Positions 57,885 through 60,914 of a stretch of DNA of 64,000 nucleotides are shown in pieces (positions within the stretch are counted from its first letter, which is position 1; each line of letters opens with the position of its first letter). The position numbers and the translations under genes are program-made. Under the pieces are notes generated by a model, which saw only the letters and a list, made by a program, of their open reading frames with translations, was not told the DNA's origin and searched no databases. Where the stretch lies: assembly GCF_054482525.1 (NCBI RefSeq), contig NZ_CM137006.1; one strand, given 5' to 3'.

Positions 57885-57972
57885 CAATACAGGTGCCAAA
57901 CGGTGTTAACCCGTTGTCACTAAATTGCAGTCGCTCGCCAGCAAGGCGCGCATATTTATCGTATAGCCCCAT
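57885..57972 (-). pseudogene. 5' stub (29 codons) of an alpha-oxoamine synthase / class-II aminotransferase-like gene truncated by IS1
   Basis: Minus-strand ATG overlapping ACP stop (TAATG) translates MGLYDKYARLAGERLQFSDNGLTPFGTCI then abuts IS1; family call is inference from N-terminal peptide and context. Confidence 0.45.
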
Positions 57973-58220
57973 TATTTATTCTCCAGCCATGGAAGTAGAG
58001 TTTCCATTAATTGCGCAGGGGTTTTGACATCCAGCAGAATATTAATAGGAATGGAAATATCGAATCTGTCTTCCAGCATCATTAAGAGATCCATCACTTT
58101 GATCGACTCCAGGCCAAGATCGTTGACGAGATCGCTGTCGGGCTTAATTTCCACACCGTTTTCGACCAAATCCTGTAAACAGGAAAGGATGTAATCCATT
58201 ACTATTTCACGATTTACCAT
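57972..58220 (-). CDS. Acyl carrier protein-like
   Basis: 82-aa acidic ORF with DLGLESIK phosphopantetheine-site-like motif. Confidence 0.7.
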   Translation of the reverse strand: MVNREIVMDYILSCLQDLVENGVEIKPDSDLVNDLGLESIKVMDLLMMLEDRFDISIPINILLDVKTPAQLMETLLPWLENK

Positions 58221-58251
58221 AGAAACGTTAACACACCTTTAAACAAGACAA

Positions 58252-59166
58252 TCAAAATAGCCCGTTGCGTAATGCGTGTTCCAGGCTAATCCCGGGAAAC
58301 CAATTAATATCTTCAGAAATACGGTTATTACTTGCCGACCAGTCGGCGTGGGTTAATTCACGAATTTTCGAGCGGGTCAGCATAGGTTCTTTACCTGCCA
58401 GGCGACTCAACGCGGTACTGATATCCGCAAGGCCGGTGAGTACCGGCAGAGGAATGCCAACCATTCGCACGGAACCGCAACGGGCGTCGGCGGCAAGTTG
58501 CTGTACGCGTTGCCAGTCATAGCCGCCGACGACGCCATCGCATAATTCATAGGTTTGCGTCTGTATAGTTTCGGCGCTTAACCACTGACCCACTGCTTGC
58601 GCGAAATCGGTGACGTGCAGAAAAGAGAGCTGTGTATCTGGCGCACCAAGTCGTGGCAGCAGGCCGCGCAGCATCCAGTCAAACAGCGGTTTTAACTCTT
58701 TATCGCCGGGACCATACACGGCTGTCGGGCGAAAAACGCCCAGCGTAATTTCGTCCGCCATTGCTGCCAGTCGTTGCTCGGCGACGTATTTGGATTTTGC
58801 ATACCAGGAGAGCTCGGGATGGCGCGCCGCCAGCGAAGAGATAAACAGAAAACGTTGGCAAAAGCCGCTCTCTTTTGCTGCTTGCATCAGGCGCAGGCTG
58901 CCGTCAACGTTACAGCGGGTGAAAATCTCTTCTTTGTGCCCGCGCACTTGCCCGGCGCAATGGACCACTACGCTGGCTCCGGCAACCAGCTCGCTAAGTG
59001 AATGAGTATCTTCCAGCGAACCGCGCACCCAGGTGAGATTATCATTGACGTGAGCGCGGGCAGTACGCGTCAATGCGCGAACGTGAAAGCCGCGGGCGAG
59101 CAGGTTATCGATAATATATTTACCGATAAACCCGGTAGCGCCCGTCACCGCGACAGTTTGATTCAT
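58252..59166 (-). CDS. NAD(P)-dependent epimerase/dehydratase-family reductase (extended SDR)
   Basis: 304-aa ORF with N-terminal GATGFIG Rossmann motif and YxxxK; 4-nt overlap with upstream ligase gene. Confidence 0.8.
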   Translation of the reverse strand: MNQTVAVTGATGFIGKYIIDNLLARGFHVRALTRTARAHVNDNLTWVRGSLEDTHSLSELVAGASVVVHCAGQVRGHKEEIFTRCNVDGSLRLMQAAKESGFCQRFLFISSLAARHPELSWYAKSKYVAEQRLAAMADEITLGVFRPTAVYGPGDKELKPLFDWMLRGLLPRLGAPDTQLSFLHVTDFAQAVGQWLSAETIQTQTYELCDGVVGGYDWQRVQQLAADARCGSVRMVGIPLPVLTGLADISTALSRLAGKEPMLTRSKIRELTHADWSASNNRISEDINWFPGISLEHALRNGLF

Positions 59167-60914
59167 GCCAGGGATTCCTGCACATTAAGACTGGCAGCAT
59201 AAGCCTTCTGATAACGTTTTTTCGCTTCCGCACGGGCAGGCTTGCCGGAGGACGTTCGGGGAATACTGTGGGGCGGCAACAGATCGATAGCCGCGGTCAC
59301 GCCAAATTCGCTTTGGATCCGTGCCGCCAGCGCGTGGATAAGCTGCCCGCGACGTTCTTCGTCGCTGATCCGACACTGGATCTGCAAAATGATTTTTTCC
59401 TGGGCGGTAACAAAAGCAATCGCATCGCCAGAATGAATTTCCGGTTCCTGTTCCGCTATATATTCAATATCCTGCGGCCAGATATTACGGCCACGAATAA
59501 TAATCAGATCTTTAATGCGTCCGGTGACATACAGATAACCGTCCAGCAGATAACCGAGGTCGCCGGTGTCTAACCAGCCCGTCGCGGCAATCTCGTCTTG
59601 CGAAACCTGGTCGCCAAAGTAACCGCTCATCAGACTGGGACCGGAGATGCAAATATGGCCTACCACACGTTCCGCGACCGGCATACCTGCTTCATTGCGG
59701 ATTTCAATACCATGTTCCGGCAACGCTTTGCCGCAGTTGACGAAAGTCGATACGGCGCGTGTCTCTGCACCCGGCGCGACGGCTTTACCCTGATATTCGA
59801 GGATGTCGCGATCCACTTCGTTAACCACAACCCCGGAGGCTTCATCAGAGAAGCTGACAGCCAGCGCATTTTCTGCCAGTCCGTAGCACGGCATGAAAGT
59901 TTTATCGTCAAAGTTGACCTGACGGAAACATTCAGCGAATTGATGGAGTTGTTCTGCGGAGATGGGTTCTGCACCAATACCAGCGACGCGCCAGCAGGAA
60001 AGATCCAGTTCAGCGAGATCTTTTTCATTCACGCGGCGCTGGCACAATTCATAGCCAAACGGCGGCGCAACGGAAACGGTGCCGCGATTTTTACTGATCA
60101 ATTTAAGCCATTGCAGAGGACGCATGGCAAAATCCTGAGTGCGCAAATAATCTACTGAGAGTTGCGTGGCGACGGGGGTCAGGAGAAAGCCGACCAGTCC
60201 CATATCATGGTAGAAAGGCAGCCAGGAGACGCAGCGGTCGCCAGGGCGTAATTTTATGCCATCGTGGCTTATAGCACGTAGATTAGCCATCACTTCGCGA
60301 TGGGTGATAATGACGCCACGGGGAAAACGGGTGCTGCCGGAGGTGTACTGGAGGTAGGCGATATCGTTCGGAACTGGACGCTGGAGCGCAACATCGGCTT
60401 CCGGTAATGCCTTAAACCAGGCGTGGCTTAAAACATGTAATTCGGGGTTGTTGTTATGCGTCGCGGCATTGACCAGTGGCAACCACTCATCACCAGTGAT
60501 AATGGCTGCGGGCTGGCAACTTGCCAGTAAACCCTGCAGCTTGGCGCTCCAGGAATCCCGCTGACCGACGCCCATGGGAATCGCCAACGGGACGGCGACT
60601 AAGCCGGCATACTGGCAGGCAAAAAAAGCCTCTACGAACCCGCTACTGGTTTCGGCAATCAGTGCCACGCGATCGCCTTTTTTCAGGTTTAGCGATAACA
60701 ACCGCTTCGCACCAGCTTCGGCACGCGCTTTTAACGTCTGATATTCCAGTTGATCTTCAAGTTGGCAACGTCTGTCATAAAAATTCATTCCAGCGCTACT
60801 CAGAGCGGCATAGTCCAAAGCATCAACCAGCGTTGGAAAATCGGCATAGCGCATAGGTAGGGAATGCGTAAAGATTTTATTAGACATATACACCACGAAA
60901 AAATTGGATATCAA
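59163..60914 (-). CDS. Fatty acyl-AMP ligase / acyl-CoA synthetase family (start uncertain: M1 at 60914 or M10 at 60887)
   Basis: 583-aa ORF with AMP-binding core YTSGSTRFPRG and C-terminal SSGK; resembles FAAL enzymes. Confidence 0.8.
   Translation of the reverse strand: MISNFFVVYMSNKIFTHSLPMRYADFPTLVDALDYAALSSAGMNFYDRRCQLEDQLEYQTLKARAEAGAKRLLSLNLKKGDRVALIAETSSGFVEAFFACQYAGLVAVPLAIPMGVGQRDSWSAKLQGLLASCQPAAIITGDEWLPLVNAATHNNNPELHVLSHAWFKALPEADVALQRPVPNDIAYLQYTSGSTRFPRGVIITHREVMANLRAISHDGIKLRPGDRCVSWLPFYHDMGLVGFLLTPVATQLSVDYLRTQDFAMRPLQWLKLISKNRGTVSVAPPFGYELCQRRVNEKDLAELDLSCWRVAGIGAEPISAEQLHQFAECFRQVNFDDKTFMPCYGLAENALAVSFSDEASGVVVNEVDRDILEYQGKAVAPGAETRAVSTFVNCGKALPEHGIEIRNEAGMPVAERVVGHICISGPSLMSGYFGDQVSQDEIAATGWLDTGDLGYLLDGYLYVTGRIKDLIIIRGRNIWPQDIEYIAEQEPEIHSGDAIAFVTAQEKIILQIQCRISDEERRGQLIHALAARIQSEFGVTAAIDLLPPHSIPRTSSGKPARAEAKKRYQKAYAASLNVQESLA

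Follow-up and report, generated by a model that had tools for sequence, protein, structure and literature searches.

The subject of this report is a row of minus-strand genes at positions 57885-60914 of a 64,000-nucleotide stretch of DNA (contig NZ_CM137006.1 of assembly GCF_054482525.1; the whole stretch is called the window here), which lies in the glcC-yghO...yghT-pitB region of E. coli. The list of open reading frames (ORFs) and the minus-strand sequence reveal three full-length ORFs in a tight array, followed by a 29-codon stub that abuts the insertion sequence (IS) IS1. They encode a fatty acyl-AMP ligase (FAAL), an extended short-chain dehydrogenase/reductase (SDR) and an acyl carrier protein (ACP); the stub is the beginning of a gene for serine palmitoyltransferase (SPT). 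The locus, already known as the aasR-epi/cerR-acpR-spt cluster, is one that E. coli B shares with most other E. coli. Very probably, the region represents three-quarters, from the 5′ end, of the operon for sphingolipid (dihydroceramide) synthesis in E. coli, which has been inactivated here. Sequence analysis in this work gave the gene identities, the junctions between the genes, how far the deletion reaches and the identity to characterised proteins, all reported below.

Layout of the operon

The genes of the operon, the element that interrupts it and the far edge of the accompanying deletion are arranged as follows.

59163..60887, minus strand: aasR / EcFAAL, fatty acyl-AMP ligase (acyl-AcpR synthetase), intact, 574 aa
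58252..59166, minus strand: epi / cerR homologue, extended-SDR NAD(P)-dependent reductase, intact, 304 aa
57972..58220, minus strand: acpR, specialised acyl carrier protein, intact, 82 aa
57885..57972, minus strand: spt′ remnant, 5′ end of the serine palmitoyltransferase gene, 88 nt, 29 codons
57117..57884, minus strand: IS1A, complete element, 768 bp
56984..57116, plus strand: yghS′ remnant, first 44 codons of the gene for the P-loop protein YghS; far edge of the deletion

The ligase and SDR genes meet at GGCATGAATC, where the stop codon TGA and the start codon ATG share ATGA, i.e., overlap by 4 nt (59163-59166). The SDR and ACP genes are spaced by 31 nt, and the ACP gene runs into the stub at AATAATGGGG through a TAATG with a 1-nt overlap. 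An earlier interpretation made without database searches (the sequence-only reading) had described three overlapping or coupled minus-strand genes followed by a stub, and all of these features are indeed present. Coupling had been proposed there for the ligase/SDR and ACP/stub junctions, and the 31-nt spacer agrees with this. A scan of 57800-61400 for promoters (consensus promoters) and terminators gave no enrichment over shuffled sequence, and hence no regulatory element was assigned.

The ligase is EcFAAL

The maximal ligase ORF extends from a TTG at 60914 to 59163 on the minus strand and would give 583 aa. The ATG at 60887 (574 aa) is the likely start, because its product aligns end-to-end with the crystal construct of PDB entry 3PBK; an alternative ATG at 60854 is used by the annotation pipeline PGAP in BL21. 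Over the 574 residues, the protein differs from 3PBK, an E. coli protein entered as 'Fatty Acyl-Adenylate Ligase', by 3 substitutions and 1 extra Asn (~99% identity, 1295 bits). It carries an AMP-binding domain (Pfam, 2e-58) and matches the NCBIfam fatty acyl-AMP ligase model NF006624 with 871 bits, where the cut-off is 600, whereas every acyl-CoA ligase model of NCBIfam remains below its cut-off. The near-identity to 3PBK over its full length includes the segment Ile363-Val386, the FAAL segment named in a review of this enzyme class (PMC11837247), such that the FAAL-specific insertion is present by sequence. In the table of structures of this review, 3PBK appears with lauroyl- and myristoyl-adenylate as ligands; the word sphingolipid has 0 occurrences in the review.

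Compared to BL21 ECD_02851, the ligase has 6 substitutions and 1 indel, which is the extra Asn. This residue stems from an additional in-frame AAC codon within an AAC repeat (60447-60455, minus strand), so that the site reads H-N-N-N-P here, H-D-N-P in BL21 and 3PBK, and H-N-N-P in strain War. The additional codon probably arose by replication slippage and probably lies in a surface loop.

The biochemistry of this enzyme has been published. EcFAAL loads fatty acid onto holo-EcACP, and controls lacking ATP or containing a Ser-to-Ala ACP yielded no product (Patil et al. 2021, PMC8460268). One might still take the ligase for an ordinary fatty acyl-coenzyme A (CoA) ligase of beta-oxidation or lipid recycling and regard the ACP and SDR genes as unrelated neighbours, since the AMP-binding domain is generic and the protein does give weaker matches to acyl-CoA ligase models. 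However, the sequence-only reading had singled out CoA-ligase features as the sign to look for, and the comparison came out in favour of a FAAL: the top model above its cut-off is the fatty acyl-AMP ligase, with all CoA-ligase models falling short of theirs. Furthermore, the protein is nearly identical to EcFAAL, with the FAAL-specific insertion and the published transfer to holo-ACP, and how FAALs reject CoA is explained in the same work (PMC8460268). The coupling by ATGA and TAATG as well as a gene order that is kept down to 37% identity also speak against chance neighbours. An acyl-CoA ligase is thus refuted by the published EcFAAL biochemistry, and we regard this explanation as hardly credible.

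The acyl carrier protein and the reductase

The ACP has a PP-binding domain (Pfam, 1.5e-13), and its phosphopantetheine-attachment residue, Ser39, aligns with Ser36 of AcpP and lies inside DLGLES (residues 34-39), a context to which the sequence-only reading had already drawn attention. The Glu preceding this serine is particular to the E. coli protein, while two distant homologues carry Asp-Ser. Its sequence matches with 100% identity that of AcpR_Ec from BL21(DE3) (ECD_02853 / WP_000248097.1), a protein which takes up beta-alanine and thus carries 4′-phosphopantetheine (PMC9386255). Domain, conserved serine, the prosthetic group of the identical ECD_02853 and the TAATG junction to the spt remnant all identify it as AcpR.

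The reductase displays the SDR motifs GxxGxxG (GATGFIG, residues 9-15) and YxxxK (YAKSK, residues 122-126), and Epimerase, 3Beta_HSD and NAD_binding_10 are the precomputed Pfam domains of a protein 100% identical to it. It differs by 1 aa from BL21 ECD_02852 and is 34% identical to CC_1164 of Caulobacter (7e-38; Table S2, PMC9386255). When 1.84 billion representative proteins were searched with the SDR, 492 relatives emerged at E <=1e-30, two of which, with 43% and 37% identity, sit in a gene order of AMP-binding, SDR and PP-binding. In the one of these two contigs where it is annotated, the next gene is an Aminotran_1_2 gene whose product shares 50% identity with the Spt of E. coli; an LptF/LptG pair is present on one of the two contigs. 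Across the Enterobacterales, orthologues of the SDR occur widely, among others in Citrobacter, Hafnia, Serratia, Erwinia, Pantoea and Kosakonia. The motifs, the homology to CC_1164 and the position between aasR and acpR agree in marking this SDR as the CerR/Epi homologue. Among solved proteins, one of the closest to the SDR by sequence is NDUFA9, the 39-kDa subunit of mitochondrial complex I.

With these assignments, the FAAL (by NF006624 and 3PBK), the extended SDR (by its motifs) and the ACP (by PP-binding) are the proteins that had been proposed from the sequence alone.

The truncated gene is spt

The stub ORF (57880-57972) comprises 30 aa, of which the first 29 (88 nt, to 57885) are native, while the last codon enters the end of IS1. 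In strain War, the intact Spt (390 aa, named 'spt: serine palmitoyltransferase' by PGAP) begins with exactly these 29 aa. The suspicion that the stub belongs to an alpha-oxoamine-synthase-like gene was therefore correct, and comparison with intact orthologous loci, which had been suggested as a check, leads to the N-terminus (residues 1-29) of precisely such an enzyme. The window keeps codons 1-29 of an spt gene, and no enzyme is encoded by them.

The identity of the condensing enzyme was judged from the intact orthologue. It passes the NCBIfam equivalog model NF047599 for serine palmitoyltransferase with 599 bits (cut-off 500) and fails the other NCBIfam models, namely bioF (333 vs 426), Kbl (297 vs 460) and the CqsA-type model (221 vs 428). 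Its best relatives in the PDB are the Sphingomonas SPTs 2JG2 (S. paucimobilis) and 2X8U with ~375 bits; KBL and AONS follow at ~200 bits and CqsA at 125.

These scores bear on the question of what the operon makes. The sequence-only reading had proposed a condensation of acyl-ACP with an amino acid followed by keto reduction, and had named sphingoid bases, CAI-1-like compounds and other aminolipids as possible outcomes. If the condensing enzyme were of the CqsA, BioF or Kbl type and used an amino acid other than serine, then the product would be a signal of the CAI-1-like alpha-hydroxyketone kind or of the amino-ketone kind, or some other aminolipid. Alpha-oxoamine synthases share a fold, the intact gene does give sub-threshold matches to BioF, Kbl and CqsA, and a truncated copy in one genome is annotated as '8-amino-7-oxononanoate synthase'. 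However, the intact orthologue scores above the SPT equivalog cut-off and below those for bioF, Kbl and CqsA, solved SPTs are its best PDB matches by a wide margin, and SPT_Ec has been found to form 3-oxo-sphinganine from serine (PMC9386255). The model scores together with this published serine-dependent reaction rule out a CqsA, BioF or Kbl identity for the truncated gene, and we consider a product of this kind very improbable. Of the chemistry originally envisaged, acyl-ACP plus amino acid, subsequent keto reduction and the sphingoid base thus stand, and the CAI-1-like and other aminolipid branches are excluded by the SPT equivalog.

The IS1A lesion removes 7.5 kb

The sequence is homologous to the intact loci of strains War and BL21 up to 57885, and homology resumes at 57116, with a complete IS1A in between. 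In intact loci (War and BL21(DE3)), yghO is divergent from the FAAL, SDR, ACP and spt genes, which are followed by a convergent block and then by yghT and pitB. The convergent block contains paralogues of lptG and lptF, a YtfJ-family gene, a gene for a 274-aa hypothetical protein, yghQ (449 aa, MOP-flippase-like, labelled 'lipopolysaccharide biosynthesis protein'), yghR and yghS. Relative to BL21, 7,458 bp are missing and replaced by IS1A, which is inserted after nt 88 of spt. Lost are spt codons 30-390, lptG2, lptF2, the ytfJ-like gene, the gene for the 274-aa hypothetical protein, yghQ, yghR and all of yghS except 44 codons. This yghS′ remnant aligns to the intact-locus segments L003 (11018-11150) and L004, that of BL21(DE3) (from 11259). 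In an identical genome, 20A24, PGAP calls the IS1A transposase and an incomplete yghS pseudogene.

The element has its terminal inverted repeats but lacks a 9-bp target duplication, as can be seen from its flanks TGCCAACAG (57108-57116) and CAATACAGG (57885-57893). Because this duplication is absent, a simple insertion is excluded, and the lesion is an IS1-associated deletion or the outcome of recombination between two IS1 copies. Other strains were searched for a precursor in which IS1 is simply inserted at this position of spt, and none was found. Two candidates were rejected: 2023CK-01509 has IS1 in spt at nt 55-63 with a 9-bp duplication rather than at nt 88, and in SLK172 the IS1 lies between yghS and yghT, not within yghS.

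With a query that spans both junctions, the exact double junction is found in 5 of 5,426 complete E. coli genomes, with 99.9-100% identity across the junction, namely those of strains 2452, AH50, 20A24, GN03551 and GN03139; under the looser criterion of any IS1 adjoining the stub, the number rises to 35 genomes.

Since spt is lost, no long-chain base can be made in this strain. The prediction that the pathway is non-functional here holds, as spt is cut after codon 29, and the pathway is disabled more thoroughly than by a truncated condensing enzyme alone, because the presumed transport and head-group genes are also gone. The boundary at 57885 had been placed correctly from the sequence alone; the IS1A behind it had not been named, and the 7.5-kb deletion of the convergent genes as well as the membership of yghO in the system had been missed.

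YghO and the neighbouring genes

The remaining features around the operon are the following.

61258..62400, plus strand: yghO, bCerS/Aca homologue, intact, divergent from the operon, 380 aa
60888..61257, no strand: A+T-rich intergenic region separating the divergent yghO and ligase genes, presumably the control region
56118-56810, minus strand: yghT, P-loop protein

'yghO ECD_02850' has been listed as an aca homologue and is 44% identical to CC_1154 (1e-107; PMC9386255). YghO gives no Pfam or NCBIfam match. Its AlphaFold2 model (pLDDT 70, pTM 0.70) matches tandem-GNAT N-acyltransferases in Foldseek (E 2e-13), and this predicted fold fits an assignment as bCerS/Aca. Furthermore, homologues with 54% and 43% identity, which are likewise Pfam-less and ~380-390 aa long, adjoin FAAL-SDR-ACP(-Spt) clusters in the distant contigs L007 and L008. 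Homology to CC_1154, the GNAT-type model and the co-occurrence with spt clusters thus all point to YghO as the bCerS/Aca homologue of this system.

YghR, YghS and YghT are three paralogous P-loop proteins whose genes flank the cluster (the BL21 segment concerned is 9888-11391 of L004). YghR and YghT give weak dTMP-kinase-like matches; YghS has no family match below E 1e-5, though its PGAP label is dTMP kinase. We considered whether the three could be ceramide kinase counterparts of CpgB, but CpgB is of the LCB5/DAG-kinase type with a GGDG motif, which YghR, YghS and YghT are not.

Proposed pathway

The locus has been studied from BL21(DE3), with ECD_02850 as aca (yghO), ECD_02851 as aasR, ECD_02852 as epi, ECD_02853 as acpR and ECD_02854 as spt (Padilla-Gomez et al. 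2022, Front Microbiol 13:961041, PMC9386255). Co-expression of AasR_Ec, AcpR_Ec and SPT_Ec led to 3-oxo-sphinganine, SPTs were found to favour acyl-AcpR over acyl-CoA, and AasR/AcpR pairs proved to be species-specific, as AcpR_Cc is not acylated by AasR_Ec (PMC9386255). Because the ACP of the window is 100% identical, the SDR differs in 1 residue and the ligase in 6 substitutions and 1 indel, the data obtained with BL21 and with EcFAAL transfer directly. The sequence-only reading knew of no characterised product for the locus and named a published characterisation as something that would refute it. The 3PBK structure, the EcFAAL-ACP transfer (PMC8460268) and the 3-oxo-sphinganine (PMC9386255) overturn that statement.

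In the intact pathway, AasR (EcFAAL) uses ATP to adenylate a free C12-C16 fatty acid to the acyl-AMP, and the acyl group is then passed to the 4′-phosphopantetheine arm of the dedicated carrier AcpR only, and not to CoA. The pyridoxal phosphate-dependent enzyme Spt condenses acyl-AcpR with L-serine to 3-oxo-sphinganine and CO2. YghO (bCerS/Aca) would add the N-acyl chain and the SDR (CerR/Epi) would reduce the 3-keto group, giving dihydroceramide. The order of N-acylation and keto reduction is disputed even for Caulobacter, and so is the compartment of the reductase. Lipid modification and export to the outer membrane presumably fall to the lptF and lptG paralogues, yghQ, the YtfJ-family gene, yghR and yghS; second copies of LptC/F/G and a flippase have been reported in the sphingolipid region of Caulobacter (PMC11324152). 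Of these steps, the transfer from FAAL to ACP, the 4′-phosphopantetheine on AcpR_Ec and 3-oxo-sphinganine formation by three E. coli proteins come from the literature; by homology to Caulobacter, we infer what the SDR, YghO and the transport genes probably do, as well as the probable native E. coli end product.

Several observations weigh against the locus being a working dihydroceramide operon in E. coli. Caulobacter CerR was reported to be periplasmic, but the E. coli SDR opens directly with the Rossmann motif, and no signal peptide is evident in it. The assignment of the SDR as CerR draws on 34% identity and synteny, and our literature searches found no biochemistry for the E. coli protein; likewise, YghO is a putative bCerS by 44% identity and synteny, and the confidence of its model is moderate (pLDDT 70). 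The locus has no LCB5-type ceramide kinase like Caulobacter CpgB. SPT over-expressed alone in BL21 gave no detectable 3-oxo-sphinganine (PMC9386255), and because SPT alone yields no product there, the native aasR and acpR genes appear to be silent or weakly expressed in standard laboratory growth. Our literature searches found no published report of any E. coli that makes sphingolipid from the chromosomal locus.

The BL21(DE3) chromosome itself carries intact aasR and acpR (834-4885 of L004) despite the null result with the SPT plasmid alone.

Fate of the remaining genes

The surviving aasR, cerR, acpR and yghO genes are most likely a recently stranded remnant. An alternative would be that aasR-cerR-acpR and yghO keep a role independent of Spt, e.g., that acyl-AcpR sequesters fatty acids which YghO then uses for N-acylation of another amine. 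In keeping with this, yghO and the three ORFs have kept their full length and carry few substitutions, and the transfer from FAAL to ACP does not need Spt. However, the lesion, present in 5 of 5,426 genomes at 99.9-100% identity, looks recent, so that the integrity of the ORFs requires no selection. Moreover, other lineages lose or break the same genes (the IS5 deletion of K-12, the internal stop in the FAAL of DETEC-S566, the IS1-truncated SDR of MLI105), and no acceptor is known outside the Spt pathway. We therefore judge a retained, Spt-independent role to be improbable, and return to the remnant of a dihydroceramide operon as the explanation for what is left in the window.

A more speculative idea, to which we give a small but real chance, is that the surviving genes may still be expressed and may divert free fatty acids, by way of acyl-AcpR, into an Spt-independent N-acyl product and, more broadly, that the intact locus may make an undetected outer-membrane sphingolipid, whose head group YghR/YghS/YghT would build and which LptF2/LptG2 would export. 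If this were true, the five strains with the IS1 deletion would be natural knock-outs for the idea of a native outer-membrane sphingolipid.

Distribution and repeated damage

Of 5,426 complete E. coli genomes, 4,134 contain an spt match, and in 4,093 the coverage is >=80%. The locus has been hit by insertion sequences in several ways. K-12 has an IS5 deletion at this site. In 2023CK-01509, a simple IS1 insertion with target duplication lies at nt 55-63 of spt. In DETEC-S566, IS1B follows ~174 nt of spt and is accompanied by a deletion that extends as far as gss; the ligase gene of this strain also has an internal stop. In MLI105, the SDR is truncated by IS1, and SJ7 has an IS3 element in yghO. 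Such independent and repeated damage suggests that the locus is dispensable, or even costly and counter-selected, in many niches and lineages.

The genes, the structure, the biochemistry and a first product are all published, and what the window contains is a published operon that has been broken by an insertion sequence. Its wider interest is that about three-quarters of E. coli genomes carry spt, yet no report of a native sphingolipid was found. If the native product is sought by lipidomics, strains with the IS1 deletion could act as natural controls.

Comparison with known systems

The closest system is ECD_02850-ECD_02854 of BL21(DE3), which lies at this very place in the chromosome, flanked by glcC and pitB, with the same gene order and the same ATGA and TAATG junctions. 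In contrast to the window, BL21(DE3) has spt and the entire block of lptG2, lptF2, the ytfJ-like gene, the hypothetical gene, yghQ, yghR and yghS intact.

The ligase of the window is essentially the EcFAAL of 3PBK (Zhang et al. 2011) and of the EcFAAL-EcACP pair (Patil et al. 2021), where it was treated as a model FAAL.

Caulobacter crescentus shares with E. coli the four-gene order as well as the five functions, encoded by CC_1165 (aasR), CC_1164 (epi/cerR), CC_1163 (acpR), CC_1162 (spt) and CC_1154 (aca/bcerS). The identities between the E. coli proteins and those of the Caulobacter ceramide genes are 44% for Aca, 53% for Spt, 41% for AcpR, 34% for Epi and 42% for AasR (Table S2, PMC9386255). 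As in the intact E. coli locus, second copies of lptF and lptG and a flippase gene lie nearby. Unlike for the E. coli locus, ceramide and ceramide phosphoglycerate are proven for Caulobacter, which has the head-group genes CpgABC, including the LCB5-type ceramide kinase, whereas the E. coli locus has the three dTMP-kinase-like P-loop genes yghR, yghS and yghT.

Finally, E. coli K-12 offers a second example of the same locus wrecked by an insertion sequence, in the arrangement yghO-IS5-yghQ′. There, IS5 replaces aasR, cerR, acpR, spt, lptG2, lptF2, the ytfJ-like gene, the hypothetical gene as well as a portion of yghQ, but yghR and yghS are kept. In the window, by contrast, IS1 has spared aasR, cerR and acpR, and it is yghQ, yghR and most of yghS that are gone.

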